Shown here: piece after piece, positions 2,905 to 58,233 of the stretch
How the letters are laid out: each line of letters opens with the position of its first letter
Numbering within the stretch: the stretch's first letter is position 1
Assembly (NCBI GenBank): GCA_016932965.1
Contig: JAFGBW010000103.1
Span: forward strand, 2,615-66,614
Source of the DNA: Candidatus Auribacterota bacterium
Lineage (GTDB): Bacteria; Auribacterota; JAFGBW01
Length of the DNA stretch: 64,000 bases
Direction: 5' to 3'
Notes under the pieces: model-generated
What the model was told of the DNA's origin: nothing
What the model saw: the letters and a program-made list of their open reading frames with translations, nothing else
The model's database searches: none
Position numbers and translations under genes: made by a program

Positions 2905-3174
2905 TTATTGAGAACAACAACCTTTTGTTTTATTGACCAAAGTTGACTTCACGAGCACTTCAGGGATGGATCCCAGTTTGCCAGTCATGGCTCCGATTTC
3001 ATCAGTGGTCCCGTCCACAATGATGCTAATGATGTGGGTATTGCGCTGATGATAAGGAATACCCATTCTGCCGATGATCATTTCTCCGTATTGTGATAAA
3101 ACCTCATTCACTTTGCGTGAAGCGCTCATTCTATCCTTGATGATGACAGCCACGACTCCGACCTGCTTTTCCAT
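2905..3174 (-). CDS. putative iron-only hydrogenase system regulator (TM1266-like, NikR-C/ACT-like fold)
   Basis: 89 aa; resembles the small conserved protein found beside hydG (TIGR03959-type); synteny with hydG supports the call. Confidence 0.6.
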   Translation of the reverse strand: MEKQVGVVAVIIKDRMSASRKVNEVLSQYGEMIIGRMGIPYHQRNTHIISIIVDGTTDEIGAMTGKLGSIPEVLVKSTLVNKTKGCCSQ

Positions 3175-3456
3175 ATTTTCTCCTTATTCAAGTTTATGCC
3201 CCCTGAAATAAAAAACCCGGCTGAAACAGGCCGGGTAATGCTGCTATTACCCCTCAGTTTCAGTCCAAACCTTAACCTCAGGTCGCTATTTTCGGCAAAT
3301 TATATCAAGACTCATGGAAAGATACAGCTTAATTTTTTACAGCAAATAGTCTCAGCGTGTGACAATCCAGACTGAATCCATTTGTCTTAATAATAGTTTG
3401 TTATTTTCTGATTCGGAAAAAGTAGAATATTTTTTCGATATCTTGTATTTAGCATC

Positions 3457-4935
3457 ATGATGTCCGGACAAGATGGAATTGTATCAAAAGGATCTTTAAT
3501 AGAAGCAATGAACCGTTTGAAGTCATTATCCTTTCCTTTCATCATTGGCATTTTATTGGGTATCAATGCCTTGTCTGCTTTTTATTACAGCATGTATTGT
3601 GAACCGCTTACAATGACCATGGATGAGCCGCAATATGCGGAGCTGGCTTTTTCACTTTGTCAAAGAGGGTCCTACTCCACCTTAACAGAAAATACTTACT
3701 TTGAATCCGGGAAACCAACCGCCTTCAGACCCCCGCTTTATCCTCTTTTTCTGGCTGGAATCATTCAATTATTCGGAAAAGAAAATTTCATCATCAAAGT
3801 GCGTCTGGTTCAGGCCGTACTCAATCTGGGGATACTTCTGGCCATATTTTATTTCTCCTTTCTCTTATTTTCCAGCCGCGGTATTTCTTTGATTGCCATG
3901 ACCCTGGCCAGTGGTTTCATGCCCTTTATTTACATGAGTTCCCATATCATGACGGAAACATTGAGCTGTCTCCTTGTTCTGGCCACATTCATTTCATCGC
4001 TCTTGGTTCGTATGGCTTCCAGAGTGAATCAATTCTATTGGCGATCATTTTTCATGGGAATGCTTCTGGGACTATCGGTTTTATGCCGCCCCAATAACAT
4101 TGTGCTTCTTTTGTGTACACCTTGTATTTTTTTTAGCCTCATTTTTTCAGCTAGACAAATTTTCACGGCCTTTTTCCTGAGCTTGCTGATTTTTTTATCG
4201 ATACTGGGACCCTGGGCCATGAGGAATTATCTCGTGCTGGGCTCTCCTGTTTTTTTAACGACTAGCGGAGGCATCAATCTTTATTACGGGAATAATCCTC
4301 ATCCGGACAGCACCAAGGGAAATCTGGTTCCGCTTCCGGAATTGCCGGCAGATATCGCGAAGGATGAAGTCAAGAAGGACCATTACTTGACACAAGCGGC
4401 CTTTCAATTTATCAGAAGTAATCCCCAGACATTTTTGAAAAGAATTCCGCTTAAACTGAAATCCGTATTTTCGCCTCATTTGGGATCCGAATACAACAGC
4501 TATAGCGGCAGATTTTTTATCGTATTTTTCCTTCTGGCCTGTTTGTTTCATTCTTACAAAAGAAGAATCGTCCTTTTTTTCACCTTTTTGTTCTGGATTC
4601 CTTTATTTTCAAGGCATTTTTACAGCATTCCCTCTTTTGTCATTTTTTCATTCCATCAGGTCATGTTCGGATTCCCTCAATTGACCGTATTTATCTTTGT
4701 CGGTTCTCTTCTGCTTGTCATGAATAAAAAAGCCGACGCTCTCAGTCATCTTCCATTTTTATGTTATGTTCTCCTGACAATCCTGTTGAACATATTATTC
4801 CTTCCCAAGATGCGGTTGAGATTTGTTTTGGATCCTTATTTCATCATTCTTTCAGCCTATGCCATGCATTGGATATGGTCCCATACCCGAGAATGCGCTG
4901 CTTTCCTGAATCTCCGGCTTAACTTGAAGAAATGA
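3457..4935 (+). CDS. GT-C fold membrane glycosyltransferase (family 39/83, ArnT/PMT-like)
   Basis: 492 aa with more than 10 predicted TM helices; PPLYPLFLAGIIQLFG motif typical of ArnT/PMT family loop 1; no soluble domain. Confidence 0.6.
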   Translation: MMSGQDGIVSKGSLIEAMNRLKSLSFPFIIGILLGINALSAFYYSMYCEPLTMTMDEPQYAELAFSLCQRGSYSTLTENTYFESGKPTAFRPPLYPLFLAGIIQLFGKENFIIKVRLVQAVLNLGILLAIFYFSFLLFSSRGISLIAMTLASGFMPFIYMSSHIMTETLSCLLVLATFISSLLVRMASRVNQFYWRSFFMGMLLGLSVLCRPNNIVLLLCTPCIFFSLIFSARQIFTAFFLSLLIFLSILGPWAMRNYLVLGSPVFLTTSGGINLYYGNNPHPDSTKGNLVPLPELPADIAKDEVKKDHYLTQAAFQFIRSNPQTFLKRIPLKLKSVFSPHLGSEYNSYSGRFFIVFFLLACLFHSYKRRIVLFFTFLFWIPLFSRHFYSIPSFVIFSFHQVMFGFPQLTVFIFVGSLLLVMNKKADALSHLPFLCYVLLTILLNILFLPKMRLRFVLDPYFIILSAYAMHWIWSHTRECAAFLNLRLNLKK

Positions 4936-4958
4936 CGAGAATGATCAATTCAGATGGA

Positions 4959-6278
4959 TTATTTGAACCATCTTTTCAGGATTTTCCCCTCTGAAGGGTG
5001 ATAGGATGTTTTCACATCATCGATTTCCTGTCCCAGTAAGACATCAATCGATGATGATTTTTTCATTGAAAGGATTTGTGAAGGAAAGACACTTCTGTGA
5101 CCTGTGATCAAAAAGCTGATGACAGCCGCAATAGATGCGTAGGGCGCTATGGTCGGGCCGAAAAGTTCAATCGCCATGATGCTGGCTGCTATGGGTGCAT
5201 TGGCGCAACCGGCTAAAACGCTCACCATCCCTATGGCTGCTGCTGTGGCAGGATTCATATGAAGCCAGGGAGCAAAAGCGCTTCCGGCCGTGCTTCCGAT
5301 GAAAAAAATCGGGGTCACGATTCCGCCGCTTCCTCCAAAATTCAATGTCAAAGCAGTAAAGATGATTTTTAGAGGAAAATCCCAAAAATCAGCCCTTTTT
5401 CCCCTGAGACACTGTTCAATAGGAGTCAGTCCCAGACCGAGGTACTTGGAAGAAAATATCAAGGCTAAAATGACCAAAACCACACCGGCCAGCATATTCT
5501 TATAATAAGAATTGATTTTAAAGCGTTCAGATAATTTTTCACCAAATTTCAATGATTCAATAAGACAGAAAGAGCATAATCCGAAAAATAAACCGGCAAT
5601 GATTATTTTAAAAAGATAATTCTCCGTAAAAGGAGGCAATTGCTTTAAAGGATTATAAAAATAAGTGACGCCCAATTTGGAAGCGACCTGGTGGGCCGTG
5701 ATCCCGGCAATAAAAGATGGAAGGAGCACGTCGTAAAGAAGAGTCCCCACAAAAAGGACCTCCACACCGAAGAGGGACCCTGCAATCGGGGTCCCGAAAA
5801 CAGCAGCGAAGCCGGCGCTTATTCCGCAGATAACGAGTTTTTTTCTGTCTTGTCTGTTCAGTTTCAATAAAGAGGCAAACGAAGAAGCTAAAGCAGCGCC
5901 GATCTGCGCACAGGGGCCTTCTTTTCCTGCACTTCCGCCGAAAATCAGGGTCAGAATTGTTGCGATTAGTTTTATCGGAGCTACCAGTGGGGCAATATAT
6001 CCGGATTGTTTATGAAGCGCCTCGATGACTTTCTCGGTTCCATGCCCCTTGGCATTGGGTGCAAATTTCTGAACAAACCAGGTTGATGCCAGGAGAGCCA
6101 CCGGAATCAAAAGATAATAATATGTCCATCCCTCATGGATATAAAGCGTAAATTCATTGAGAGTGATAATAAACAGGGCCGTGGATAAACCAACCAGTGA
6201 GCCAACTATCAGAGACAGGATCACCCATTTCACGATGCTGATAAAAAGTATAGTTTCTTCTTCCAGTTTTTGTTTCAC
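4959..6278 (-). CDS. ClC family voltage-gated chloride channel / H+-Cl- antiporter
   Basis: 439 aa polytopic protein; GSAGKEGP and GGxGG-type selectivity-filter motifs (GKEGPCAQIG, FGGSGGIVTPIFFIG). Confidence 0.85.
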   Translation of the reverse strand: MKQKLEEETILFISIVKWVILSLIVGSLVGLSTALFIITLNEFTLYIHEGWTYYYLLIPVALLASTWFVQKFAPNAKGHGTEKVIEALHKQSGYIAPLVAPIKLIATILTLIFGGSAGKEGPCAQIGAALASSFASLLKLNRQDRKKLVICGISAGFAAVFGTPIAGSLFGVEVLFVGTLLYDVLLPSFIAGITAHQVASKLGVTYFYNPLKQLPPFTENYLFKIIIAGLFFGLCSFCLIESLKFGEKLSERFKINSYYKNMLAGVVLVILALIFSSKYLGLGLTPIEQCLRGKRADFWDFPLKIIFTALTLNFGGSGGIVTPIFFIGSTAGSAFAPWLHMNPATAAAIGMVSVLAGCANAPIAASIMAIELFGPTIAPYASIAAVISFLITGHRSVFPSQILSMKKSSSIDVLLGQEIDDVKTSYHPSEGKILKRWFK

Positions 6279-6655: not shown

Positions 6656-9592
6656 TTATTTTATGAGATTCGAATCCAGTGTCACTGCATTGCTGGCCAA
6701 AGGCAGTGAAGAGTCGTTGATTTTTAAGCATCGTTTGTCCCTGGAGTCAGGAAGCCAGATTCCAAAATTAACGATGAGATCGTTCAAATTCCTGACATCC
6801 GGAGGAACAGGGATGATTCGGATGATCCGCTGATTTTCGTGAAGGAGCCATTCCAGCGCAGTTTTGTTGTCTTCATTTCTGTCAAAATCACCTTGAAAGA
6901 GGAGTTTTGAATCCCTGTTAAAGTGAAGGAAAAAAGCAGGGGAGTTCGATAAGGGGCCGGTTCTTTCCAGAAGAAAGCAGGCCTGAATGAAGTCTCCCTG
7001 ACGGGTTTTCTTGTTTTTCAGGAAATATCCCTTGAGGAGGATGGAAGATTCAAAGTCGACCCGGCATGGTTTCAAGATTCGCTGATTATTTTCAGACCAT
7101 TTTGTCAGCCGTGAACGGAGATAGGGATCCTGAATCGAAGAGAAGAACTTATCAAGAATGCTGGAGGTCGGAGATAATTCATATATAAGATGGAGAAGTT
7201 GTTGAAGACGAACACTGGGACGAGTGGTTTGCAGAGCTTGAAGCAGATAGTTCAGATGATCTTCCCGGGGAGATTGAACGGTTAGGCCCATTTGATTCCA
7301 GTAGAAGGAGATGGTTTTCGGCCCTCCGGAGAACTGGTAGAAACAGTCGTGTCCTTCCTGATTTATCCGCTGATAGTGAAATCCATAGATATCGAGGAAT
7401 TGCGACAAATCTCGGCTCATGGAAGGAACCGATAGGATCAAGGAGGATTCCTTTTCAGGAGTGAAATGCCCGTCAACAGGCATGGGGTACCACAGAGCAT
7501 CGTTGAAGGGTTGAACTACGACAGTTTTTTTCAGAAGAGATGATTTGATGAGTTTTGCTGAAAGATGTCTTTCAACAAAGACTTTTTCTATTCCCAGCGT
7601 GTTGATCCATTCGGCCAGGGAAGCGACATTTTCTGTTCCCCGAGGAATCAGTGGCAAGGGTTCAAATAAATAGCATTCTGCCATTGAAAACGGGGAGGAA
7701 GAGACAAATTCAACATAAGAGACTCTTTCAGGAGGGAATTCGAATTCATAGCGGGCCTGGATCCAGTTGAAGTAGATTTTATGTGAAGACGTATAAACGG
7801 GCATGATCCGGTTCTGTTTGATTTTCTTTGTCCATGATATTCCATCATCGGAAACATTGATTTGCAGGTCATTTTTTTTGTAAGGAAGAAAGTCAGGAGG
7901 AAAGAAAATGATTTTACCTAGTTGCGTACTCTGTGAGAGTTTGACCAGGATATGATAGCGATTCCGGATTTTCTGAGCCATGGCACAGGTGCGATGGTTC
8001 CGGTCAAAGAGGCCGCCATGATAGTGGAAGGAATAAGAATGAGTGTGTGAGACAGAGAGGGGTAGGGTGCGGTAACAGTACCGGGGCTCATAGCGGATAT
8101 GATTGAGGACCGTGATCTGGTCATTACGGACAGGACAATCGTATTGAACCGGGAGAATATCGGATAGATACCGGTCGTATTCGAATCCGGTGGATGTATA
8201 GAGCAGGAAAGGGTTTTCTGCTGCGTCTGCATTCAATTCGATGGTTTTATTTTTCTCCTGAAAAATGGCGGCAGAGGCCAGTTGGATTTTCCCTTTGGAA
8301 AGAAAATCAATTTGAGGGGCTTTCCGGAATTCCGATGTGGGGGTGACGCCTATAGGTTCATTCAGGGTGGATAAAGGAGTCATGAATTTATCATCTATCA
8401 GATCCGATATCCGCTTGGACTTTTCCAGAATATACCGGCTGCCGGAATAGCCGTGTTCAATTCTGAGAAGGAGAAAAATAACTAAAAGGGTCAGCGCCGT
8501 TTTTTTCCATTTTTCCATGAGCCAGATAAAAGAGGCCGCCATCATGATGGAAATAGGGAAGTAGATGGATAAAACGAACCGCGGAGAAGTCATTCTTCTA
8601 AAACGGTAACAGATAAAAATGACGATGGTGACTGTCACCATGAGAGGGAGTATGAGGGAAAGAAAACGGTTTTCTTTTGCAGGTGAAAAATGAAATTTTT
8701 TGATCACAGGAATGAAATACAGGACCAGCAATAACACTGTGAGCACGAAAATGGTTCCATAGAAGTATAAACGGTAGGGGGGAGGATTCAGCATCGGCTC
8801 TTTGTAGAGGAGTCCCGGCAGGATGTGGTGGAACATGTTCCAAATCCCCGTCTGAAAAGGAGTGTCCGGCTGATCGTGCAGGAGTTGTACTGTGATAAAC
8901 CGGTAATGGATATTCGCAATCCACCAGGGAAGACTGCCGAGCAGAAATGAAGGCAGCGCCCACATATTTTTTTTTGCAAAGAAAAGTGATGGACGGTAGA
9001 ACAGGATGAATAACAGGGAAGTCGCCACTGAAAAGATAATCAGACTGTGGTTCCACCAGCCCAATCCAGCAATGAGCCCCCACAGGAGAATGTCCCCGGT
9101 CCGGTTTTTTTTCAGTATTCGTACGGTGATCCACAATAACAGAACGGAAAACAGCGAGGTTACGGCATAAACGACTCTGGGATAATAGCTGTACACCAGC
9201 GGTTCAAACGAGGGAAACAGGAGGAACAGAAGAGAAAGTCCTGCCACCTTTTCGTTAAAGAGTTCTTTGGCTAACAAATAGGTGGCTCCCATGGTAAAAA
9301 GATACAGAACAACAATGGAGGCATGAAGGGAGGCCTTGGTTTCCCCGAAAAGGAGAATGAAAAACACGGAAAAGAAGGTTTCAAGCGTCCCGCTGTAACC
9401 ATGTCCGTAGAAAAAAGGTTCAAAACGGGCCTGTTTCAGCATGTTTCTGGCCATGACTCCCACCATGCCGGAATCGTACGTGAGATTGCACGGATAGAGG
9501 AGGATGAAAGGCAGTCTGGAGACCAGGGTGACAAGGGCCACGAAGAGAAGATACATTCTGCTGGATAAAAAATTCATTCGGTTTGGCCCCAT
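6656..9592 (-). CDS. large GT-C-like membrane glycosyltransferase paralog with roughly 550-aa C-terminal extracytoplasmic domain
   Basis: 978 aa; N-terminal roughly 420 aa polytopic with YGHGYSGTLETF loop resembling PMT/ArnT-type GT-C; long soluble C-terminal region of unknown fold. Confidence 0.45.
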   Translation of the reverse strand: MGPNRMNFLSSRMYLLFVALVTLVSRLPFILLYPCNLTYDSGMVGVMARNMLKQARFEPFFYGHGYSGTLETFFSVFFILLFGETKASLHASIVVLYLFTMGATYLLAKELFNEKVAGLSLLFLLFPSFEPLVYSYYPRVVYAVTSLFSVLLLWITVRILKKNRTGDILLWGLIAGLGWWNHSLIIFSVATSLLFILFYRPSLFFAKKNMWALPSFLLGSLPWWIANIHYRFITVQLLHDQPDTPFQTGIWNMFHHILPGLLYKEPMLNPPPYRLYFYGTIFVLTVLLLVLYFIPVIKKFHFSPAKENRFLSLILPLMVTVTIVIFICYRFRRMTSPRFVLSIYFPISIMMAASFIWLMEKWKKTALTLLVIFLLLRIEHGYSGSRYILEKSKRISDLIDDKFMTPLSTLNEPIGVTPTSEFRKAPQIDFLSKGKIQLASAAIFQEKNKTIELNADAAENPFLLYTSTGFEYDRYLSDILPVQYDCPVRNDQITVLNHIRYEPRYCYRTLPLSVSHTHSYSFHYHGGLFDRNHRTCAMAQKIRNRYHILVKLSQSTQLGKIIFFPPDFLPYKKNDLQINVSDDGISWTKKIKQNRIMPVYTSSHKIYFNWIQARYEFEFPPERVSYVEFVSSSPFSMAECYLFEPLPLIPRGTENVASLAEWINTLGIEKVFVERHLSAKLIKSSLLKKTVVVQPFNDALWYPMPVDGHFTPEKESSLILSVPSMSRDLSQFLDIYGFHYQRINQEGHDCFYQFSGGPKTISFYWNQMGLTVQSPREDHLNYLLQALQTTRPSVRLQQLLHLIYELSPTSSILDKFFSSIQDPYLRSRLTKWSENNQRILKPCRVDFESSILLKGYFLKNKKTRQGDFIQACFLLERTGPLSNSPAFFLHFNRDSKLLFQGDFDRNEDNKTALEWLLHENQRIIRIIPVPPDVRNLNDLIVNFGIWLPDSRDKRCLKINDSSLPLASNAVTLDSNLIK

Positions 9593-9791: not shown

Positions 9792-11543
9792 TTGAATTTC
9801 ACCGTGCGAAAAGTTTTATTTCTTATTCTGCTTTCGTTGTCGCTTCGTTTTATCCATTTGATTGAACTGGATTATTCCGTCCTGGCGAATCATTTAACCG
9901 GGGATGAGATCACGCACAAACAATGGGCCTCTGATGTGCTGCATGGCAGAATAAAGGAACTGGTTCCTTTTTTTCGCGCTCCTCTCTATGGTTTTTTTCT
10001 CGCTTGGATCATCAACATTTCAAACGGAACTTTGTATGCCATCCGTTTTTTTCAACAGGTCATTGGAACAGCAACAGTCGTCATGAGTTTTCTCATCGGA
10101 TTGGAATTGTTCTCCCCTCTTGTTGCTCTGACGGCCGGACTGATTCTGGCCTCATATCCTTTGCTGATGTATTTTGAAGGGTTTTTGTTCCTGGAAAATC
10201 TTTATCTTTTTTTTGTCATGGCAGGGATTTTATTTTTCGTTCGTGCCATCAAGTATAAGCAGTTCAAGTGGACAGGAGGATCGGCTCTTTTTTTAAGTGC
10301 TGCCGCCTTGACCAGGCCCAATATATTATTTTTCATTCCTTTTGTTTTTCTGGCCTTCATCAAGGAGTCTCTGCCAAAAAAACAGATACTGGGTTTTAGC
10401 TTTTTTTTACTCCTCATGATATGTCCGGTGACTCTTGTTAATGACTGGTATGGGAAAGGATTCTGCCTCATTTCCACTCAGGGGGGGATCAATTTTTATG
10501 CGGGGAACAGCCTTGCATCCGATGGAATTATCCCGTGCGTTCCAAATTCGTCACTCTCTGATCAGGAGTTAACAGCCAGATGCTCTTTTTTGAAAAAGAC
10601 CGCATGGAATGTGGATAATCTATGGCAGGTCTCACAAATCATCCCCAATATCGGAAATGATAAACAGCTATCGGAAATCGAAGTATCAGGATGGTGGTAC
10701 AAAAAGACGCTTGAAGAAATCCGGTCCGATATTCCGTTGTTTTTAAAAAGGCTTGCCAGAAAATTCCTGTTTTTGGTCGGTTCCTATGAACCTCCTAATA
10801 ATACGGACCCTGGTTATGCCATGGGCCGGTTTTTCCCTTTATTAAGAGGGTTGAGCCGGGTAATTAATTTTTGTATTCTCTGGGTTTTTTTCCTTCCAGG
10901 CTGCTTTCTTGCATGGAAGCTCTATCCCCGTTCGAGATGGTTGTTGCTCTATCTGATATCCATGAGCGCTGTGATTCTGGCTTTTTTTGTAAACGCAAGA
11001 TTCCGTGTTCAATTGATCCCTGTGATGGCCTTGTTTTCGGCGGTTTTTATTGAATGGCTGATGAAGAAAAAAGGGCTTTTTTCCATTTCAGCCTTGCTGA
11101 TACCGGTCATGGTGGTCACGGCTGTTGTTTTTTCCCAGCTATTCCGGCTTTATCCGGAAACCAGTCAGATCAGGTCATCCAAAGCCTTGTTTCATAATTC
11201 CCTTTCCCTGGCTTATCTGGATCATCAGCAAAGCGATAAGGCTTTGGATGAGATCAATGCTGCTCTGCGCCTTCATACAGGCGAGGAATTTATTTTTCTT
11301 CATACCCTTTCGGTCATTCAGTCGCGGTATCTCAATAAACCAGATGAAGCGATCCGCTCACTAGAAAAATCGGTTGAATTATGCGAGCATCCGGTCTCAC
11401 TTTTTGATCTGGCTTCTCTTTATTATCAGAGAGGCCTAAACGATCCATGCCTGAATGCATTGAATCGGCTGCTGCTTCTGGCACCGGATCATTCGCGTGC
11501 TCGGGAGTTAAAAGAAAAAGTAGTCCGGGAAGATAGGGGGTAG
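9792..11543 (+). CDS. GT-C membrane glycosyltransferase with C-terminal TPR repeats (TMTC-like architecture)
   Basis: 583 aa; more than 10 TM helices followed by a TPR-like helical repeat region (LSLAYLDHQQSDKALDEINAALRL...). Confidence 0.5.
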   Translation: MNFTVRKVLFLILLSLSLRFIHLIELDYSVLANHLTGDEITHKQWASDVLHGRIKELVPFFRAPLYGFFLAWIINISNGTLYAIRFFQQVIGTATVVMSFLIGLELFSPLVALTAGLILASYPLLMYFEGFLFLENLYLFFVMAGILFFVRAIKYKQFKWTGGSALFLSAAALTRPNILFFIPFVFLAFIKESLPKKQILGFSFFLLLMICPVTLVNDWYGKGFCLISTQGGINFYAGNSLASDGIIPCVPNSSLSDQELTARCSFLKKTAWNVDNLWQVSQIIPNIGNDKQLSEIEVSGWWYKKTLEEIRSDIPLFLKRLARKFLFLVGSYEPPNNTDPGYAMGRFFPLLRGLSRVINFCILWVFFLPGCFLAWKLYPRSRWLLLYLISMSAVILAFFVNARFRVQLIPVMALFSAVFIEWLMKKKGLFSISALLIPVMVVTAVVFSQLFRLYPETSQIRSSKALFHNSLSLAYLDHQQSDKALDEINAALRLHTGEEFIFLHTLSVIQSRYLNKPDEAIRSLEKSVELCEHPVSLFDLASLYYQRGLNDPCLNALNRLLLLAPDHSRARELKEKVVREDRG

Positions 11544-18021: not shown

Positions 18022-18196
18022 TCCTGAATGGTGAAGGGTTGATGGTTGCTAGTGGGTGGCTGTTAGTGAATAGTGAGGGGAATATATCTTGATTTATTAA
18101 CGCCTTAGAAAGAATTTAATACGGCTCCGGCAAATGAATACATGCATTTTAAAGGTCATTAGCCTGCGGGTATAACTGGAGCATATTTAAATATTT

Positions 18197-18540
18197 AATT
18201 AATCCGGTATATCACCGCCACAGGATTTGGACTAGCAAAGTTTGACAATTCCGTGAATGCTAAGAGGAATAATATCACCACAGAGAGGACACGGAGAGCA
18301 CGGAGAAATCATCATTGTGAGTTTTGAGGGTTTAGTTATGAATTGAATTGATCGAATTTCATTTGAATTTTGAAATTCAACACCTATAACTTTTTTTACC
18401 CTCCGTGCTCTCCGTGTCCTCTGTGGCAGAAAAAAAATGGAAATATTTTATACAGTATATTTCATTAAAATTGATCGCTTTGAGAGGTTCACATTTCAAG
18501 CCACCGGCTCTGCCGGTGGTAGTTGACTGCCCCAGTAATA
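18197..18540 (+). repeat. composite intergenic repeat element, copy A (5' module + 30-bp inverted-repeat hairpin + 3' module)
   Basis: 5' module TTAATTAATCCGGTA...GGATTTGGACTAGCAAAGTTTGACAAT (18197-18275). IR-L CACCACAGAGAGGACACGGAGAGCACGGAGA (18276-18306) and IR-R CCTCCGTGCTCTCCGTGTCCTCTGTGG (18399-18426) are near-perfect reverse complements around a roughly 93-bp loop. 3' module GCTTTGAGAGG...CCACCGGCTCTGCCGGTGG...AGTTGACTG is shared with copies B, C and E. Confidence 0.65.
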
Positions 18541-18852
18541 ATTTATCCTGTCTAAAAAATTTATATTCCCATTCCTCTGCGCCTCAGCGTCTCTGCGGGA
18601 GTCCTTCTTTATCTTGCGGGCGTATGCGACCAGTTCCTTTCTCCGTGTTCTGTCGTGAAAAATAGATATAAATCCAATGAGTCAGTAGAAATGTTTGCTC
18701 TTTATTATGATCTCATGAAATGCTTAGATGAGGAGGGGGGTAATTTTATTTTTGCGTTACGGGAAAAATTTTGCTTTTTATATCAGCAAATGGATTCATT
18801 TTTAGTGATAGGTTAATAAATTCAAGAGACATTAACCCGGAAGGATCAGAAC

Positions 18853-19440: not shown

Positions 19441-19514
19441 CACGCCCGACAGGATTTGAACCTGTGACCCACGGATTAGAAATCCGTTGCTCTATCCAAC
19501 TGAGCTACGGGCGC
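19441..19514 (-). tRNA. tRNA-Arg (anticodon UCU)
   Basis: Reverse complement reads GCGCCCGTAGCTCAGTTGGATAGAGCAACGGATTTCTAATCCGTGGGTCACAGGTTCAAATCCTGTCGGGCGTG. It has a 7-bp acceptor stem with one G-U pair, D-loop AGTTGGATAG, anticodon stem ACGGA/TCCGT with loop TTTCTAA (anticodon TCT), and T-loop GGTTCAAATCC. CCA is not encoded. Confidence 0.85.
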
Positions 19515-22343: not shown

Positions 22344-22347
22344 AGTT

Positions 22348-22660
22348 TTAATTAATCCGGTAAACCACCACCATTGGTTTTGGACTAGTCAAGTTTGACA
22401 GATGAGTAAGTATTTTTAAAAAATTTTCACCACGAAGGGTAAAAAGAGTTATTGGTGTTGAGTTTACATTTTATTTATTAACTCATGACTCAAAATTTTT
22501 CTCATTTTTTCGTGCTCTTCGTGTCCTTAGTGGTAAAATAAAAATATTTAACTAGAGAATAATATGAATGTTATGCCATATTCAGTGGCTTAATATGAGG
22601 AGGCTTTGAGCCGGGAATATTTTCAAGTCTTCACCTCTGGTGGAGATAACTGACTCAAAG
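22348..22660 (+). repeat. composite intergenic repeat element, copy B (between sufB and sufC)
   Basis: Starts 4 bp after the sufB stop with TTAATTAATCCGGTAAACCACC...GGTTTTGGACTAGTCAAGTTTGACAG. Degenerate IR arms CACCACGAAGG (22427) and CGTGCTCTTCGTGTCCTTAGTGG (22511-22538). 3' module ATGCCATATTCAGTGGC...GGCTTTGAGCCGGGAATATTTTCAAG...CACCTCTGGTGGAGATAACTGACTCAAAG. Confidence 0.6.
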
Positions 22661-22722
22661 CATAGGCCAGTACTTTCGGTAGGGCATCCGAGGAGAGGAA
22701 TTCGATAAGAAGGATCATCAAT

Positions 22723-23490
22723 ATGCTTGTCATAAATAATTTGAAAGTGAGTGTGAATGAAAAGCCGATTCTGGATTCCATCCGTCTTTCTGTCGGGAAA
22801 GGGGAGATTCACGCGATCATGGGCCCGAATGGTTCCGGCAAGAGCACACTGGCCAAGGTCATTGTGGGGCATCCGTTATGCAAGGTGACGGAAGGAAGCA
22901 TGGAATATAACATCAATGGGCAAAGGATCAATTTATTGCCCCTGTCTCCGGAGGAAAGGGCGAGAGAAGGTATATTTCTGGCATTTCAGTATCCAATGGA
23001 AATACCGGGTGTGAGCAATGCCGTTTTCTTAAGGGCGGCGTATAATGAGATTCTCAAAAAAACAGGCCGTGAGGAAATGGATCCCATGGATTTCAATATT
23101 TTCATAAAACAAAAAATGAAGGAATTGGATCTGGATGAATCTTTTATCAACCGTTTTGTGAATGTGGATTTTTCAGGGGGAGAAAAGAAGAGAAATGAGA
23201 TACTTCAGATGGCGGTTCTTTCCCCCAGGCTTGTTTTTCTGGATGAAGTCGATTCCGGATTGGATGTGGATTCACTCAGGACAGTGGCTGACCGGATCAA
23301 CCGTTTGAAAACCAAAGACAATGCATTAGTTCTGGTCACCCATTATCAACGGATACTCAATTACGTGGTTCCGGATTATGTTCATGTTCTCTCCAACGGC
23401 AGAATCATTAAAACGGGCGGAAAAGACCTGGCTTTATATATTGAGGAAAATGGATACGATACCATCAAAGAGGAGAAGAAAAGGGTATGA
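22723..23490 (+). CDS. sufC: Fe-S cluster assembly ATPase SufC
   Basis: 255 aa; Walker A GPNGSGKS, ABC signature FSGGEKKR, Walker B LVFLDEVDSGLD; SufC-typical length. Confidence 0.9.
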   Translation: MLVINNLKVSVNEKPILDSIRLSVGKGEIHAIMGPNGSGKSTLAKVIVGHPLCKVTEGSMEYNINGQRINLLPLSPEERAREGIFLAFQYPMEIPGVSNAVFLRAAYNEILKKTGREEMDPMDFNIFIKQKMKELDLDESFINRFVNVDFSGGEKKRNEILQMAVLSPRLVFLDEVDSGLDVDSLRTVADRINRLKTKDNALVLVTHYQRILNYVVPDYVHVLSNGRIIKTGGKDLALYIEENGYDTIKEEKKRV

Positions 23491-24002
23491 AAAAAACGGT
23501 ATTATTTATTTTAACTGTTTTGATTGGATCGGCTGTCTCCACTTTTTCTTATTCAGAGGAGACGGTCGCCCAGTTGAAAGAAAAAATCATTGATATCCAG
23601 AATGCGGGAGAACTGGGATTTCGCAATTTCACTCTCTGCACCAATATCATCGGATACGGCCAGTATGTGGCCGCTCCTGATAACAAGGTCAAAGCAGGAT
23701 CGGAGATTTATTTTTACTACGAGCCGGTGAATTTGTTTACCAACCGCCTGAATCAATCCTATCAGATTTGGTATACACAGGATATGATCATCCTTTCCCA
23801 GGACGGCAAGGAATTGTACCGGGCTTCCGATGCTTTGAATTTTAATTATCAGAGTCTGGCTCCTGTCATGGATATATATGCTTCGAATACATTGAATCTG
23901 AAGGAAGTGCCTCCTGGAATATATCAGTTCCAGGCAGTCATTCATGATAAATTGAAAAAAAGGGATGCCACGTATTCTTTTGTTTTTGAAGTGGTTCCAT
24001 GA
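23487..24002 (+). CDS. hypothetical secreted protein inserted between sufC and sufD
   Basis: 171 aa; N-terminal signal peptide (MKKTVLFILTVLIGSAVSTFS); start overlaps the sufC stop (ATGA) and its 3' end overlaps sufD; no recognisable domain. Confidence 0.45.
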   Translation: MKKTVLFILTVLIGSAVSTFSYSEETVAQLKEKIIDIQNAGELGFRNFTLCTNIIGYGQYVAAPDNKVKAGSEIYFYYEPVNLFTNRLNQSYQIWYTQDMIILSQDGKELYRASDALNFNYQSLAPVMDIYASNTLNLKEVPPGIYQFQAVIHDKLKKRDATYSFVFEVVP

Positions 24003-32465: not shown

Positions 32466-32834
32466 GGTGTATCACTCCTGTCCGGTCTTCATTCATAACT
32501 CGATTCTTGCTTCTTACTCAGCAGTTGTGATTTTTTAACGCGTCATGTTTAACTCATGATTCAATCCTGGAAGCAGTAATTGTATAAACGCATATTTGAC
32601 ATTAACTTAATCATGGGGGTAAATAATTCGTATGTGAAATGATTCATGAATGCAGATGAAATATTAAAGATGAAATAATTCCACAAATTTTTTTTACTCC
32701 CTGTTGTAGTTCTTATTTTATCCGTTAAGATAGTAGGCGGTTCAGAAACTTTTGTCCCTTCTCTTAGCGGCCTGCTTTTCCTTGCCCCGCATTCTGCAGT
32801 CGAGGATTTAAGTTATGATTTCCTGTTTAAGCAT

Positions 32835-44348: not shown

Positions 44349-44351
44349 TTT

Positions 44352-44362
44352 TCACCACGAAG
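44352..44362 (+). repeat. fragment of repeat IR-arm (TTTTCACCACGAAGG), copy G
   Basis: 18-mer nearly identical to the left-arm variant of copy B (ttttcaccacgaaggGta vs ttttcaccacgaaggAta); lies between the DUF2752 gene stop and the lplA-like start. Confidence 0.35.
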
Positions 44363-44369
44363 GATAGGG

Positions 44370-45071: not shown

Positions 45072-45080
45072 AACGGGATT

Positions 45081-45430
45081 TAATCCATTAAAATACCGGC
45101 ATAGCTTTTGGACTGGTGAAGTATGACAGTGGGAGGAAATTGTTAAAAAAATTGTTCACCACGGACACGGAAAGCACGGAGGATGAGAGTAAATTTTGGG
45201 TTGTGAGTTTTATGTTATGAGTTGAAATGATGAAATCATATTTTCTCTCATGATTTAATACTGAACACTTATCAGTCTTATTCTCCGTGCTTTCCGTGGT
45301 GAAAAAATAAATGATCAAATATGCACAACAATCATGCCACTTTAAGTGGCTTTATATAAGGCTTTGAGCCGAAACCGGTTAAACTTTTCACCTTTGATAG
45401 GGTGATTGTCCAACTTTAGTGAATCTCAGG
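45081..45430 (+). repeat. composite intergenic repeat element, copy C
   Basis: 5' module TAATCCATTAAAATACCGGCATAGCTTTTGGACTGGTGAAGTATGACAG. IR-L CACCACGGACACGGAAAGCACGGAGGA (45167-45193) and IR-R TCTCCGTGCTTTCCGTGGTG (45281-45300). 3' module ATGCCACTTTAAGTGGC...GGCTTTGAGCCG...TTTTCACC. Confidence 0.6.
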
Positions 45431-51048: not shown

Positions 51049-51056
51049 AAACAATG

Positions 51057-51161
51057 AATTAATCCGGTAAACCACCCCAAGAGGATTTGAACCAGCCAAG
51101 TTGTTTGACAATTCCGGAAATTTTAAAAAAGAAATAATTTCATCACAGAGAACACAGAGAT
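51057..51161 (+). repeat. composite repeat element, copy D (5' module + degenerate left arm only)
   Basis: AATTAATCCGGTAAACCACCCCAAGAGGATTTGAACCAGCCAAGTTGTTTGACAATTCCGG...TCATCACAGAGAACACAGAGA; begins 8 bp after the ferredoxin gene stop. Confidence 0.55.
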
Positions 51162-51355: not shown

Positions 51356-51787
51356 ATGAATCTTGGAAGAAGCATGAAACAAAAAATTTTAATCCTGGAA
51401 GAGGATCCGTCGCTTCGCTATCTGTTGAAGATGCATCTGGAAGCCGCTGAATATGAAGTCACGGTTGCGTCTCATTTGTCTGAATGCCTGAATGTATGCA
51501 AAAGTATCAAACCCGTGCTGATATTAATGGAACTGCGGAGTACGGATAAATCTTTTTCAGCTTTTTTCCCCGAAATCAAAAACAATCCTTCCATCTATGG
51601 AATCCCTGTTATCGTGGGTATTACCACGAATGAGGAAAGTGAGTTCATCGCCTCTTATTTGAAGGTAAAAGGAGAAATTGATTCCGTATTTAGAAAACCT
51701 TTTGAGTTTGAAGATCTGAACCGGGAGGTAACAAAGCTTCTTACAGGTGTCAGGGGTAGGACACAAACGGGCACAGGTAAAAAATAG
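51356..51787 (+). CDS. stand-alone receiver (REC) domain protein with Glu at the phospho-acceptor position
   Basis: 143 aa; ILILEEDPS acidic pocket, conserved T (GITT) and K (FRKPF), but the canonical Asp position reads LILMEL, a D to E substitution; no output domain. Confidence 0.5.
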   Translation: MNLGRSMKQKILILEEDPSLRYLLKMHLEAAEYEVTVASHLSECLNVCKSIKPVLILMELRSTDKSFSAFFPEIKNNPSIYGIPVIVGITTNEESEFIASYLKVKGEIDSVFRKPFEFEDLNREVTKLLTGVRGRTQTGTGKK

Positions 51788-51855
51788 TCAGATAGCTTAA
51801 CCGGAAAAGATATATTCTCCACATAACGATACGCCGGATAAGGGGTCAGGAAGAC

Positions 51856-52707
51856 ATGGATATTAAATTTTTCGGCCAGTATTTATTGGAAAAAAACATC
51901 ATTACTAAAGTCCAGCTTCTGGAGGCAATCACACTCCAGACCAATACCAATATTTCTTTGCCCATTCTCGCTGTCAAATTGGGTTATATCGACAAGTCCG
52001 CTCATGATAAGATCCAGCAATATCAGATCAGAAATAATCTGAGCTTCATCGAGGCAGCCAAACAACTGCAACTTATCTCTTCTGAAAAACTCGAACATCT
52101 CATTGCGAGACAAGTTTCCAATAATATCCTTCTGGGAGAAGCCCTTGTCAGAAAAAATATTCTTTCCCAGGAACAGGTTGACGAGCATTTCCGCCGTTTC
52201 AGGACAGAACAGTCTGCACTGGAACTGGAAATATTGAGTTCCATCTCATCCCACCACTATGGAGATATCATCGGTGCGTCGCTGCAGTCTTCCGTGAATC
52301 TGTTCCGTTACGCCATGGATGTTCAGCCCAGGATCGGGGCTTTTTATACCCATACTAGCAGCAGCTCTGATCAATACCCCTGGGTTGCTTTTCAGTCTCT
52401 GCAGGGAGATTATAATTTCACCTTTCATCTTTATGTGACTGAACCGCTTATATGTCAGATAGCTTCCTCACTGGTTCAAAGAAGGGTGGATGATATCAAT
52501 GAATTGTCTCTGGATGCCATGAAGGAATTTGTCAATACCATTGTCGGATATATCTGCACCACGCTTTCCATTAAAAATATAAAGGAAGAACCGACGCTGC
52601 CTGAAATCGAACGAACGGAAAAAATGATCAAAACGAATGAAATGGTAAAATTGGTGCTGCGTTTTCCTGAAGAAGTCGTTGAAATAGGGATCATCTTTCA
52701 CGAGTAA
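51856..52707 (+). CDS. tandem T2SSE_N/MshEN-like domains + CheX/CheC-like C-terminal domain protein
   Basis: 283 aa; two copies of a GspE-N-like motif (FGQYLLEKNIITKVQLLEAI; LGEALVRKNILSQEQVDEHF); C-terminus SLDAMKEFVNTIVGYICTTLS resembles CheX. Confidence 0.4.
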   Translation: MDIKFFGQYLLEKNIITKVQLLEAITLQTNTNISLPILAVKLGYIDKSAHDKIQQYQIRNNLSFIEAAKQLQLISSEKLEHLIARQVSNNILLGEALVRKNILSQEQVDEHFRRFRTEQSALELEILSSISSHHYGDIIGASLQSSVNLFRYAMDVQPRIGAFYTHTSSSSDQYPWVAFQSLQGDYNFTFHLYVTEPLICQIASSLVQRRVDDINELSLDAMKEFVNTIVGYICTTLSIKNIKEEPTLPEIERTEKMIKTNEMVKLVLRFPEEVVEIGIIFHE

Positions 52708-52725: not shown

Positions 52726-52944
52726 AGTTTATCACGGAGGACACGAAGGAATTTAAGTTATGAGTTGGAATGATGAGATTTTAACTCACAACTGACACTC
52801 AAAACTCTTTTTATCCTCTGTGGTAAAAAATTTTATCAACAGAATTTATCATTGATCATGCCACTTTGAGTGGTGTTATCCATGTGGTTTGAGCTGATAA
52901 CTATTTTCAATCCTCTGGCTCTGGCGGAAGTAACTGACTTGAGA
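52726..52944 (+). repeat. composite repeat element, copy E (IR hairpin + 3' module)
   Basis: IR-L ATCACGGAGGACACGAAGGA (52731-52750) and IR-R TCCTCTGTGGTAAAA (about 52813-52827). Loop shares GTTATGAGTTGGAATGATGAG with copy C. 3' module ATGCCACTTTGAGTGG...GGTTTGAGCTG...ATTTTCAATCCTCTGGCTCTGGCGGAAGTAACTGACTTGAG ends 8 bp before the TTG start of the rSAM gene. Confidence 0.6.
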
Positions 52945-52952
52945 TCTGTAAG

Positions 52953-56912: not shown

Positions 56913-57296
56913 GTGGGCTCCTCAATAATCTGCTTGTGATGTAATGGGTTCTGGTTTCCCTGCAGTTTCTTCTGCTGTCTGCAAAAATAATGATGAAAAA
57001 TAATAAAGCCTTTCAGGAGATTCAAGATAAATCCTTTAACTAACCTGCATCTTTCTTAACATCATGCTATTACAGCCTGCAATTTCTTGCTGCAAGCCTC
57101 GTTTCTCGAAATTATTTAGGCATAATATGTCCAATATTGCTTCCTCGTGAAATCGTTTCAGCTTAAGCTTTCACGGCGGATTGAGATGCTTCATTACGAA
57201 GATATCATGTGATGTGTGGATTACATACCTCAGATTCCGGGACAGTATGGATATAAATGGCAATCGCCAGTCGGGTTTTCTTATCCTTTTATTGTT

Positions 57297-57926: not shown

Positions 57927-58233
57927 GAGGTCTAATTTGGTAAATGGTTTTGATTTTCCTTTATACAGGGAATGAATTCAGCGGTTTTTTCACCCTTGTC
58001 TGGGTGGGGTGTTGATAAGGATCACCAAGAATAAATAATAAAGAAATCCTGTGATTTCAAAATAAAAATCTCCGACTACATTCATACTATATGCCAAAGC
58101 ACAGATAGTATCATGATAAATGTTGTTTCCGATTAGATTAATGAGGTCTCAGGAAATATGACAGAGAATTTATAAACATCTAAAAATGATGGTTGGTGCG
58201 TGATTCAACCGTTTTCTCAGTATCTGTTTCCAT

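Follow-up and report, generated by a model that had tools for sequence, protein, structure and literature searches.

The window, a 64-kb stretch of DNA from a Candidatus Aureabacteria MAG, contains an intergenic repeat made up of 5' and 3' modules, four of each, and at least 11 arm motifs. It is tentatively suggested that this is a REP/BIME-like extragenic mosaic, carrying a palindrome that is recognised as sequence and whose effect as RNA is conjectural. With the same reserve, the hairpins of the window may be regarded as ORF-less versions of a palindrome that is found across many phyla.

Modules and copies in the window

Profile searches (nhmmer) of the window identified four 5' modules (E 7e-14 to 1.5e-16), at 18194-18250 in copy A (E 2.3e-16), 22347-22403 in copy B (1.5e-16), 45075-45131 in copy C (3.7e-14) and 51054-51113 in copy D (7e-14), and four 3' modules (E 1e-16 to 2e-20), at 18455-18540 in copy A (E 1.2e-16), 22565-22662 in copy B (1.8e-20), 45325-45430 in copy C (8.2e-20) and 52850-52946 in copy E (4.3e-20), all on the + strand, with no further match to either module in the 64 kb. 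The double-heptamer arm pattern matched the window 11 times, against 0.94 in shuffled sequence (shuffle maximum 4), and CACCACRGAG with at most one mismatch was found 10 times against 3.3 expected. These module matches and the excess of arms over shuffles bear out the original prediction of a real, ordered, mosaic intergenic repeat, and each of its seven claimed copies, A to G, is present where it was placed. The copies are mutually 69-85% identical with many indels and, judged by their sequences, are old and diverged. All are intergenic, except F at a gene end, and the arms are paired in A, B, C and E, 60-100 nt apart, and unpaired in D, F and G. Neither arms nor modules were found in the other long spacers, at 32466-32834, 56913-57296 and 57927-58233.

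Copy A shows the full arrangement. Its 5' module reads TTAATTAATCCGG..., followed by a small hairpin (AATCC/GGATT), the box GACTAGCAAAGTTTGACA and TTGACA at 18242-18247. The purine-rich left arm, TCACCACAGAGAGGACACGGAGAGCACGGAGAA (18275-18307, +), was located by the arm pattern and has AATAAT ahead of it at 18268-18273; the interior (18308-18399, +) contains heptamer-periodic runs (GTTATGA ATTGAAT TGATCGA) and its own sub-hairpins; and the pyrimidine-rich right arm, CCTCCGTGCTCTCCGTGTCCTCTGTGG (18400-18426, +), which can be divided into the three units CTCCGTGCT CTCCGTGTC CTCTGTGG, is complementary to the left arm in the fold, giving a hairpin of 25-nt arms that are 96% complementary. The 3' module holds the GCTTTGAG box, the hairpin P3 (CCACCGGC-TCT-GCCGGTGG, 18501-18519, its pairs counted) and TAGTTGACTG. 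Two solo pyrimidine-type arm relics on the + strand, both recognised by eye, lie beyond it: CCTCTGCGCCTCAGCGTCTCTGCGGG (18574-18599), a CGCAGAG variant that falls short of the strict arm pattern and whose variant units also occur at loci L120, L181 and L198, and, more conjecturally, TTTCTCCGTGTTCTGTCGTGAAAAA (18638-18662).

Copies B and C each begin 3 nt after a stop codon, that of sufB (22343) for B and one at 45071 for C. In B, TTGACA (22395-22400, +) is followed after 18 nt by AAAAAT (promoter-like match 10/12), and the hairpin (22424-22537, +) is inverted, with the short arm TTTTCACCACGAAGG on the left and the full arm TTCGTGCTCTTCGTGTCCTTAGTGGTAAA on the right; it aligns better inverted than in the same orientation with A (117 vs 95.5), C (114.5 vs 94.5) and E (111.5 vs 87), relative to all of which it is degenerate as well as inverted. 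The 3' module of B, which ends 61 nt before the sufC ATG (22723), contains P1 (GCCAT-ATTCA-GTGGC, 22575-22589), GGCTTTGAGCC, P3 (TCTTCACC-TCT-GGTGGAGA, 22628-22646) and TAACTGACT, on the + strand. In C, ATGACA (45123-45128, +) is again followed after 18 nt by AAAAAT (match 9/12), the hairpin (45155-45303, +) has its left arm at 45155-45183 and its right arm at 45281-45303, with the derived unit CACGGAAAG common to both, and the 3' module comprises P1 (GCCAC-TTTAA-GTGGC), GGCTTTGAGCC and P3 (CACC.../...GGTG). Fold energies are -67.8 kcal/mol for A (z -8.6), -64.7 for C (z -9.2, against -44.9 on the - strand), -35.0 for E (z -5.5) and -25.9 for B (z -2.6).

Copies D and E are complementary halves. 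D (51054-51160, +) consists of a 5' module, with TTGACA at 51105-51110, and the left arm TTCATCACAGAGAACACAGAGA (51139-51160), and both profile and arm pattern searches found its right arm and 3' module absent. E has a hairpin (52728-52827, +) of left arm TTTATCACGGAGGACACGAAGGAA (52728-52751) and short right arm TATCCTCTGTGGTAAA (52812-52827), followed by a 3' module that stops a few nt before the ORF at 52953-53924 (Pfam Radical_SAM); the profile search of the window found no 5' module for it. Between the halves lies a 1.56-kb CheY-like and CheX-like gene pair, encoding a receiver-domain protein (51356-51787, +; Pfam Response_reg 3.4e-08) and a CheX-like protein (51856-52707, +; Pfam CheX 1.4e-07). 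This raises the possibility that the pair (51356-52707) is the cargo of one split composite. Fragment F (53890-53921, +), identified by the arm pattern and by reading of the sequence, is a solo canonical arm, ATCACCACGGAGGACGCGGAGAGCACGGAGAA, whose reverse complement divides into the three units TTCTCCGTG CTCTCCGCG TCCTCCGTG; it encodes the final codons of the radical-SAM ORF (..NHHGGRGEHGE*) and fills the 3-nt convergent gap between that ORF and a Na+/H+ exchanger gene. Fragment G (44349-44363, +) is an outer half-arm (TTTTCACCACGAAGG) identical to the short arm of B, with 17/17 identity to 22422-22438; it lies 6 nt ahead of the ATG of an LplA-like gene, and its AAGGA is likely to be the ribosome-binding site of that gene.

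Several features attributed to the family apply to some of its copies only. The modules predicted to occur in a common order of three are real, but D and E each hold only half of them. A start next to a + strand stop codon is seen in B, C and D (3-6 nt after it), but not in E (about 15 nt) or in A (~170 nt from the nearest ORF end). Likewise, the oriented copies do share the orientation of the + strand genes, but the hairpin of B is inverted with respect to A, C and E. The proposal that the three modules form one unit fails for two reasons: first, the hairpin of B is flipped, and second, a distant relative (L192) carries both outer modules with the arms absent.

An arm motif shared by many phyla

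The arm consists of TT[A/C]ACCAC and three tandem 9-nt units (CACGGAGRR; CAC[G/A]GAG plus 2 nt). A 19-nt arm pattern matched 72 stretches in IMG/VR and at least 118 stretches of species-representative genomes, where about 17 were calculated to occur by chance in 596 Gb. The arm is often letter for letter the same between phyla (27-30 nt, at least 12 phyla), and the 8-11 nt upstream of the pattern, which were not selected for, show 59-89% conservation at each position, and the outer edge is sharp. Its hosts include Verrucomicrobiota, Planctomycetota, Lentisphaerota, Kiritimatiellota, Acidobacteriota, Desulfobacterota, Myxococcota, Beta- and Gammaproteobacteria, Spirochaetota, Chloroflexota, Gemmatimonadota, Armatimonadota, Bacteroidota including Bacteroides, and a cyanobacterium, with GC contents of 38-71%. 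The hairpin is no private family of this genome: it is conserved in viral contigs and across 12 or more phyla. Several of the arm matches lie at contig ends.

Across phyla the distance from arm to arm ranges from 10 to >400 nt, and most arm pairs enclose just 10-200 nt; the elements measure 60-450 bp, and up to four hairpins occur in one 8-kb block (L141). With GC3-aware gene calls, 72 of the 76 cross-phylum hairpins are intergenic; the flanking genes are co-directional for 37, convergent for 15 and divergent for 9, the distance from hairpin to gene is typically 5-40 nt on both sides, and the spacers are usually filled by the hairpin elements. Heptamer-periodic runs accompany the arms, within or beside them, as GTTATGA GTTGAAA TGATGAA in the window and as GAATGCA or AGTAGCC in other phyla. 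They resemble the short tandemly repeated repetitive (STRR) heptamers of heterocystous cyanobacteria, whose sequences differ from those of the window.

The family had been called undescribed. For the hairpin this is incorrect: the arms are the same as the 'class 2 predicted global regulator binding sites' reported for G. metallireducens in 2009 as three copies of TCTCCGTS[Y] (PMC2700814). Those sites, some of them unpaired, include 21 opposite-strand pairs whose spacing varies, and lie between adjacent genes as well as inside operons, such as that of pdh E1 alpha/beta (Gmet_I209, in the pdhA-pdhB spacer); they were published as a supplement alignment (Additional file 8), were called unique to that genome and were guessed by the authors to bind IHF/HU (PMC2700814). 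By comparison with the published consensus only, TCTCCGTS[Y] is the reverse complement of the arm units (G/A)CACGGAGA, and the window shows the same three tandem repeats, opposite-strand pairs beside unpaired sites, and position between genes. Beyond that description, the motif is here found in at least 12 phyla and in phages, brackets GxxExxY genes and is nested in 5' and 3' modules. Literature searches with the arm sequences on both strands returned nothing relevant. As the original prediction had anticipated, Rfam 15 holds no family for the window or for a Bacteroides copy: only a tRNA passes in the window, and relaxed matches are to generic long-hairpin miRNA models far below cut-off.

The arms behave as conserved sequence. 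Complementarity of an arm to its own partner (15.0) exceeds that to partners from other genomes (10.7; reached in 0/2000 permutations), whereas against other partners from the same genome the difference is not significant (13.8 vs 11.8, p 0.18), and this is therefore no evidence of a pairing constraint. On inspection the arms of B. ovatus tolerate A-C mismatches, and foreign short elements are found inserted in arms between the first and second 9-mer. The comparison between genomes shows an arm that is conserved as a sequence, not merely as a stem. Orientation is less fixed: the hairpin of B is inverted within unchanged outer modules, and the hairpin in the gmd-fcl spacer has opposite orientations in B. 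ovatus and B. finegoldii (NZ_CP081918.1 near 96.3 kb; NZ_OY725937.1 near 31.35 kb). No gain or loss of a hairpin was seen at orthologous sites, and mobility is consequently inferred.

The likeness to REP, REPIN and BIME elements is extensive. Like them, the repeats here are short and extragenic, lie in spacers and at gene 3' ends and occur in tens to hundreds of copies; inverted doublets form a long hairpin, as in REPINs, and mosaics with other short motifs are formed, as in BIMEs; and there are no target-site duplications, while a putative cognate gene is flanked by inverted copies, as for REPs. There are three differences. A REP unit is an imperfect palindrome of 20-40 nt, whereas the arm is purine-rich and not self-complementary, so that only paired arms form a stem. 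REP sequences are confined to a species or genus, whereas that of the arm is close to identical in 12 or more phyla. Finally, RAYT is a Y1 (HUH) transposase, whereas the gene flanked here encodes a PD-(D/E)XK protein of ~120 aa, a putative partner. Such an intergenic motif of 30 nt, almost unchanged over at least 12 phyla, phages and gut Bacteroides, contrasts with the usually genus-private REP/BIME elements. A further possible parallel is offered by the intervening sequences (IVS) of 23S rRNA, in which a small selfish-looking ORF lies within inverted repeats that give a long stem in a host transcript, and insertion is tolerated inside essential transcription units. The IVS carry small ORFs and are excised by RNase III; they lie in rRNA, whereas the window copies lie in mRNA spacers.

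GxxExxY genes and the proposed recognition of the arms

The genes found between arms point to a possible reader of the motif. A TIGR04256 ORF (E 2.9e-46) lies between arms at L113, L180 and L178, another adjoins an arm at L091, and arms also enclose a decayed copy at L135. In several phyla these arm-bracketed GxxExxY mini-genes (PD-(D/E)XK, PF13366) sit between same-strand housekeeping genes. In the reverse test, which started from eight GxxExxY genes of cultured bacteria, the strict arm pattern was present in the flanks of three, where ~0.04 were expected, on both sides at L199 and downstream only at L198 and L202; a fourth gene (L200) has CACAGAG arms by eye. One GxxExxY gene framed by canonical arms is that of B. 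finegoldii (WP_032839887.1). All seven of the eight records that are annotated have same-strand flanking genes, for example fabD-(cassette)-fabG. Furthermore, when the 120 proteins closest to that of L113 are considered, 79 of these homologues, about two thirds, have a translated arm (MLTTEDTESTE or a variant) in their first 70 residues. PF13366 has been described as a family of unknown function with multiple transfers between divisions (PMC3424549).

It is possible, though doubtful, that the arms serve as sites recognised by a cassette system that spreads horizontally, REP/RAYT-like or homing-type, in which the ~120-aa GxxExxY nuclease, an enzyme of another fold, is the active gene. GxxExxY genes occur in only about 3 of the ~120 loci selected by their arms, and none is present in the 64-kb window; other genes between arms are Trm112-like, TA-like or of phage type. 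Viral contigs, in which single arms are common, contain no GxxExxY gene or relative. The arm motif could equally well be read by some factor of the host. If the cassette reading were true, such a system would be present in more than 10 phyla and its traces, ORF-less palindromes in phage genomes and in the spacers of operons, would number thousands, and the near-identity of a 30-nt motif from 38% to 71% GC would reflect constraint by one nuclease family. If the arms and GxxExxY belong together, they would form a new kind of nuclease-and-repeat partnership. Because these genes are repeatedly framed by arms, the motif offers a handle on PF13366, a large uncharacterised family.

Under the favoured reading of a sequence-recognised mosaic repeat, a trans-acting protein would recognise the arms sequence-specifically, the arm-flanked GxxExxY nuclease being the obvious candidate by analogy with REP/RAYT, and it would be through this recognition that the arms spread and become homogenised as DNA. 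Where the spacer is transcribed, the 25-60-bp stem could serve, in the leader of the gene that follows, as a signal for RNA processing or stability, and the 5' modules of copies B and C may also supply a sigma-70-like promoter from which transcription would start at the foot of the hairpin.

Outer modules and alternative explanations

The 5' module carries a small hairpin and the box AGYCAAAGTTTGACA; in the 3' module the GCTTTGAG box is accompanied by a conserved hairpin of 8 bp. On the sequence evidence, both are separate from the palindrome and lineage-restricted, and the hairpin is embedded between them in either orientation. In a relative, L196, a related box (CCAGTCAAAGTTTTTTG) occurs in the same suf operon, in palindromic spacers that are different. 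A metagenome scan for more outer modules gave 2 matches and viral scans gave 0. Pairing at long range of the 5' with the 3' module is not supported, the minimum-energy folds pairing different bases in each copy.

A role of the composite at the RNA level, not expected from a model of purely selfish DNA, is hinted at by two observations: the oriented composites all share the sense of the + strand genes beside them (only 4-5 independent observations, with p about 0.03-0.06, in a window of 33 + and 13 - strand genes), and the + strand folds somewhat more stably than the - strand in 4/4 window copies. In P3, four of the eight pairs are kept through changes on both sides among five sequences, and P3 is 87% paired against 29-51% in controls in which the whole structure was slid; its covariation score was reached by 19 of 500 shuffles.

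These signals could also be accommodated by a promoter-plus-leader cassette, or 'mobile promoter', in which the 5' module supplies a -35 and an A-rich -10, the hairpin guards the 5' end and the 3' module controls the gene. TTGACA or ATGACA is present in 4/4 5' modules, an AAWAAT hexamer lies 4-5 nt ahead of every left arm, the 18-nt spaced pairs of B and C score 10/12 and 9/12, the composites are all upstream of a + strand gene and in its sense, and to these are added the more stable + strand folds and the two-sided changes in P3. Nevertheless, this explanation is rather unlikely. The spacer from TTGACA to the hexamer is 18 nt in B and C; for A a hand count gives about 20 nt and for D 22 nt, too long for a -35/-10 pair, so that the internal TTGACA promoter of the original prediction is plausible for B and C only, and promoter-like matches are no commoner than in shuffles (4 vs 9.0; 14 vs 16.3). 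Moreover, E lacks a 5' module, B lies inside the suf operon, just five sequences stand behind P3, and the hairpin of B is flipped, therefore its exact strand sequence cannot matter. Finally, the 37 cross-phylum hairpins between co-directional genes show no signal of greater sense stability (sense:antisense 18:18), and orienting hairpins by their A-rich flanks gave no strand signal either (20:16). The terminator part of the proposed terminator-promoter cassette fails because the stem is followed on the sense strand by an A-tract, not a U-tract; a terminator scan reported no big hairpin, only P1 of C (45336-45350) and a - strand stem in F (53908-53894).

Somewhat less likely still is that the arms are double-stranded DNA sites for a conserved chromosomal protein, with tandem units binding a multimer and paired arms looping, as in the IHF/HU-type proposal of 2009 (PMC2700814). 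Such sites would fit the cross-phylum conservation of sequence with a tandem 9-bp period, the abundance of single arms, above all in phages, the pair distances of 10 to >400 nt and the lack of significant arm covariation within genomes. However, a 9-bp period places successive sites on different faces of the helix, and neither the bracketing of GxxExxY genes nor the avoidance of coding sequence and filling of every type of spacer is explained. The arm is also unlike the IHF consensus, WATCAANNNNTTR, and no protein is known to have the specificity of the arm.

A MITE/SINE-like element was the nearest of the three interpretations first offered, but the features of a strict MITE fail, and a classical MITE, the non-autonomous derivative of a DDE-transposase insertion sequence, is very improbable. 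Its small size, inverted arms of ~30 bp, short interior, many copies per genome and sharp outer boundary agree with such an element; the target-site duplications and transposase parent do not appear. The longest direct matches between the flanks of 82 hairpins average 4.57 nt against 4.47 nt in controls, which answers the check for target-site duplications in the negative, and none of about 200 fetched loci has a transposase between the arms. Furthermore, the window copies are old (69-85% identical), single arms are frequent, and the same termini recur across phyla, in genomes of 38-71% GC.

An inverton, in which the arms are recombination sites of an invertase and flipping of the interior alters downstream expression, is an equally remote reading: both orientations do occur, among the window copies and between Bacteroides species at one orthologous site, and the elements lie upstream of genes, but the loops can be as short as 10 nt, as in Bacteroides, and carry no promoter, no invertase gene is nearby, and recombination between the arms of any palindrome is expected to produce interspecies flips. 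CRISPR is excluded, as predicted, by copies kilobases apart, inverted pairs and position in the spacers of housekeeping genes. Integron attC sites were rejected: only the TTTAACC-type arm ends fit RYYYAAC, the TTCACC ends do not, and the copies form no arrays, have no integrase and are scattered among core genes. A Shine-Dalgarno or CsrA (A(N)GGA) decoy is suggested by GGAG and ACGGA in the units, but GGA in the hairpins lies inside the stem and the motif is equally present in Bacteroides, which are not known to rely on Shine-Dalgarno pairing; as a general reading it was set aside. By-eye comparison with DnaA boxes, sigma-54 (-24/-12) and ECF promoters, CIRCE and parS showed misfits in spacing or key bases.

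The arms also have practical consequences. Their palindromes break metagenome assemblies, and the arms yield spurious N- or C-terminal extensions of gene calls, seen as MLTTEDTESTE... starts and, in the window, as the tail of the radical-SAM ORF. The palindromes mark operon junctions at which RNA processing is now testable in culturable hosts.

The composite repeat in the window

Direct reading of the window confirmed that the composite repeat is real, with the described sequences present at all seven places (copies A to E and fragments F and G). Mechanical repeat finding recovered the 5' module as a four-copy family with 69-85% identity to the copy A reference (100%), the arm (TT[A/C]ACCAC and three tandem 9-nt units) as several families, and hairpin A as an inverted repeat of 25 nt that is 96% complementary. 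Profiles built from the copies matched the window at four 5' modules (E 7e-14 to 1.5e-16), at four 3' modules (E 1e-16 to 2e-20) and nowhere else, and a two-arm-heptamer pattern gave 11 window matches vs 0.94 in shuffles. Folding energies of the window hairpins run from -26 to -68 kcal/mol (z-scores -2.6 to -9.2). Judged by their 69-85% identity and many indels, the window copies are old. The flanking genes are those named in the original prediction (pdaD, sufB and sufC, LplA-like, HEAT/TPR, ferredoxin-like, receiver-domain, CheX-like and radical-SAM); its statement that copies start close to a stop codon holds for B, C and D, at 3-6 nt after one, and for E, at about 15 nt, but not for A.

Hairpin B aligns better when reverse-complemented, scoring 117 vs 95.5 against A, 114.5 vs 94.5 against C and 111.5 vs 87 against E, indicating that the central hairpin occupies the outer modules in either orientation. 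The composite is most likely a REP/BIME-like mosaic with an ORF-less member of the arm family at its core, and extragenic mosaic palindromes are an already known kind of element. Copy D consists of the 5' module and left arm only, copy E of the hairpin and 3' module only, and the two flank a CheY-like and CheX-like gene pair; we infer that D and E are one composite split by this cargo. Fragment G, an outer half-arm, makes up the ribosome-binding region of the LplA-like gene. Fragment F is a solo arm encoding the last codons of the radical-SAM ORF (53890-53924), a His/Gly-rich tail NHHGGRGEHGE, and between copy A and pdaD there are two additional arm relics. A convergent Na+/H+ exchanger gene ends 3 nt beyond the stop of the radical-SAM ORF, and gene calls give many GxxExxY proteins a similar arm-encoded extension, MLTTEDTESTE, at the N-terminus.

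Elsewhere in the window, a tRNA gene (19441-19514, - strand; Rfam 72.3 bits) lies between pdaD and chorismate synthase, and a 171-aa ORF without a Pfam match (23487-24002) lies between sufC and a second SufB/D-family gene, an arrangement called likewise on Logan contig L001. An 85-nt direct repeat of 71% identity (57292-57376 and 57985-58069), with no relation to either the arms or the outer modules, occupies neighbouring spacers between - strand genes and may represent duplicated promoter regions.

Outer modules and their relatives

The 5' module comprises a variable small hairpin and, after it, the box (T)AGYCAAAGTTTGACA; the 3' module has a box, GCTTTGAG, that does not vary, and P3, a hairpin of 8 bp. 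It is possible that the composite serves as a promoter or leader, given that the outer modules always lie in the sense direction and that P3 is present. In P3, four of eight pairs are maintained despite two-sided changes, and the hairpin is 87% paired, compared with 29-51% in slid controls for the whole structure. The observed P3 score was reached by 19 of 500 shuffles, and conserved pairing, drawn from five sequences, is suggestive only. The proposed TTGACA promoter is plausible only in B and C, where TTGACA-18 nt-AAAAAT is a fair sigma-70-like match; A and D have longer spacers, of about 20 nt and 22 nt respectively, and matches of this kind are no commoner than in shuffles. A promoter or leader function is, overall, unlikely to account for the composite, and the REP/BIME-like mosaic remains the preferred reading.

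Profile searches found neither outer module in about 190 fetched loci, and a scan of 241 million metagenome records found them at two places. The first (L192, 35% GC) lacks arms but has the 5' module and a still recognisable 3' module around a heptamer-rich middle; the second (L193) matches just the first 25 nt. In a relative of the source organism (L196; GCA_973632765.1, contig CCYMUM010000171.1; SufB 78% identical), the sufB-sufC, sufC-sufD and sufD-sufS spacers are filled by different composite palindromes, and giant imperfect palindromes of this different family lie at 2137-2400, 3151-3325, 4682-4992, 9066-9221 and 10197-10591. Purine-rich 9-mers (GGAGAGGAT GGAGAAGAT...) directly follow the stop codon and their pyrimidine mirror directly precedes the start codon, where a Shine-Dalgarno sequence is not obvious; inner hairpins CTGGGAAAAC...GTTTTCCCAG are present, as is a shared box (CCAGTCAAAGTTTTTTG / CCAGTCAAAGTTTTTTGAAAGGG) related to that of the 5' module. 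Mosaic palindromic spacers are thus a habit of the group, with the box shared.

The arm family in other genomes

The window arms belong to a broad family and, on sequence matches, are not private to this genome. The 19-nt arm pattern GGACRCGGARAGCACGGAG matched 72 IMG/VR stretches (54-64% GC) and more than 118 stretches of species-representative genomes, the chance expectation being, by our arithmetic, about 17 matches in 596 Gb. Among the matches listed, about nine genome matches look like chance, since they fall inside coding sequence and have no upstream part (Streptomyces, Nocardioides, Arthrobacter, Deinococcus and two Firmicutes); in the remainder the unselected upstream bases are conserved too, giving a full motif, TT[A/C]ACCACGGAGGACACGGAGAGCACGGAG, that is sharply bounded on the outside and purine-rich towards the inside. 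Hosts among the matches listed, of 38-71% GC, include Verrucomicrobiota, Planctomycetota, Lentisphaerales, Kiritimatiellae, Acidobacteriota, Desulfobacterota, Myxococcales, Beta- and Gammaproteobacteria, Spirochaetota, Chloroflexota, Gemmatimonadota, Armatimonadota, Prevotellaceae and a cyanobacterium. Further hosts came from annotated collections: Bacteroides finegoldii, B. ovatus and Gemmatirosa kalamazoonensis, the last having two megaplasmids that bear 10 and 5 places. No match turned up in 5,426 E. coli genomes. A relaxed scan of the fetched genome blocks found 85 hairpins, up to four per 8 kb, with the unit variants CACAGAG, CACGAAG, CGCGGAG and CGCAAAG. Some arm matches lie at the very ends of contigs (L078 5-23, L015 13-31, L070 84-102, L176 start), which suggests that the palindromes break short-read metagenome assemblies.

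The hairpin, at least, is not undescribed as had been claimed, since the motif is listed, without function, in the supplement of the G. metallireducens genome paper (PMC2700814). Its class 2 sites comprise 47 sequences, which make up 21 opposite-strand pairs of variable spacing; they lie in the gaps between neighbouring genes, for example those of the pdh E1 alpha and beta subunits, and each consists of three tandem repeats whose consensus, TCTCCGTS[Y], is the reverse complement of the window arm units (PMC2700814). The authors guessed at IHF/HU binding and called the site classes unique to that genome (PMC2700814); the breadth of the arms across phyla contradicts this uniqueness. The 2009 idea that the arms are DNA-binding sites for a conserved chromosomal protein of this type is rather unlikely. 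Literature searches with arm sequence strings gave no match, and no Rfam 15 family was found for the element in the window or for a Bacteroides copy. The cross-phylum spread, the link to a GxxExxY cassette and the composite form appear to be unreported in searchable sources.

GC3-aware gene calling puts 72 of 76 hairpins between genes, including 37 with co-directional, 15 with convergent and 9 with divergent neighbours, and they usually lie 5-40 nt from both genes, so that the spacer is filled; no flanking target-site duplication was found. In the gmd-fcl spacer of B. ovatus (L194 2505-2580) and B. finegoldii (L195 2503-2576), a hairpin occupies the same orthologous site but is flipped, the left arm of one species being the reverse complement of the other's right arm and the loops likewise, and these two cultured gut Bacteroides offer a handy experimental system. 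Arm-arm mismatches include A-C as well as G-T, the complementarity of an arm to its own partner is not significantly above that to other partners in the same genome, and hairpin stability has no strand bias (sense vs antisense 18:18); together these indicate that the 9-mer sequence is conserved, not just the ability to pair. Other short elements are nested in the arm between its first and second 9-mer. One of about 60 nt (TGGCCCGAAGGGCGAG...GCGAGCGAGTCAAA), read by gene callers as ...ADRRETDCRRQPLWGEQSESK..., recurs there (L007, L010, L027, L036, L050, L070, L076, L096, L108 and L178; proteins P0121-P0125 and others), and L081 has a different small hairpin at this position.

Genes enclosed by arms

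A gene for a GxxExxY protein (TIGR04256, E 2.9e-46), a small protein of the PD-(D/E)XK nuclease kind, lies between arms in one Verrucomicrobia locus (L113, L180 and L178), terminates at an arm in an acidobacterial locus (L091) and is decayed between arms in Desulfobacterota (L135). Of the 120 homologues closest to the L113 protein, 79 (about two thirds) have the translated arm MLTTEDTESTE, or a variant, among their first 70 residues, and in some of them it is split by an extra 60-nt insertion. In the reverse direction, among eight GxxExxY genes from cultured bacteria in a plasmid collection, the strict arm pattern occurs in the flanks of three, with about 0.04 expected, and on both sides only in B. 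finegoldii, where the arms are canonical. The Sphingomonas gene has CGCGAAG-type arms, its cassette lying between fabD and fabG, that of Gemmatirosa a full CGCAGAG hairpin downstream, that of Bernardetia CACAGAG arms (by eye) and that of Treponema a different inverted repeat; the others have direct repeats (two) or nothing (one). Neighbours are co-stranded with the cassette in all seven annotated records. A published survey gives PF13366, the GxxExxY family, as of unknown function, with multiple transfers between divisions (PMC3424549).

Under the REP/BIME-like reading, a sequence-specific reader would spread and homogenise the arms, and by analogy with REP and RAYT the best candidate reader would be the GxxExxY nuclease; no GxxExxY gene is present in the window. 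Once transcribed, the stem could serve within the leader as a signal for processing or stability.

Wider arm pairs enclose a Trm112-like ORF, a phage baseplate gene and ORFs that by eye resemble toxin-antitoxin genes, without confirmation by Pfam. The small Trm112-like (DUF343) ORF lies upstream of thrS in two Verrucomicrobia (L156 1058-1389, L187 5720-6051), and a G. metallireducens class 2 pair adjoins a DUF343 gene (Gmet_I210, Gmet_2572; PMC2700814 Table S4), which may be coincidence or recurrent cargo. Two Desulfobacterota MAGs (Desulfatiglans sp. and Deltaproteobacteria bacterium) have in common a conserved arm-enclosed insert of about 220 nt with no ORF (L133 6768-6981, L138, L191), which may be a small RNA or decayed cargo.
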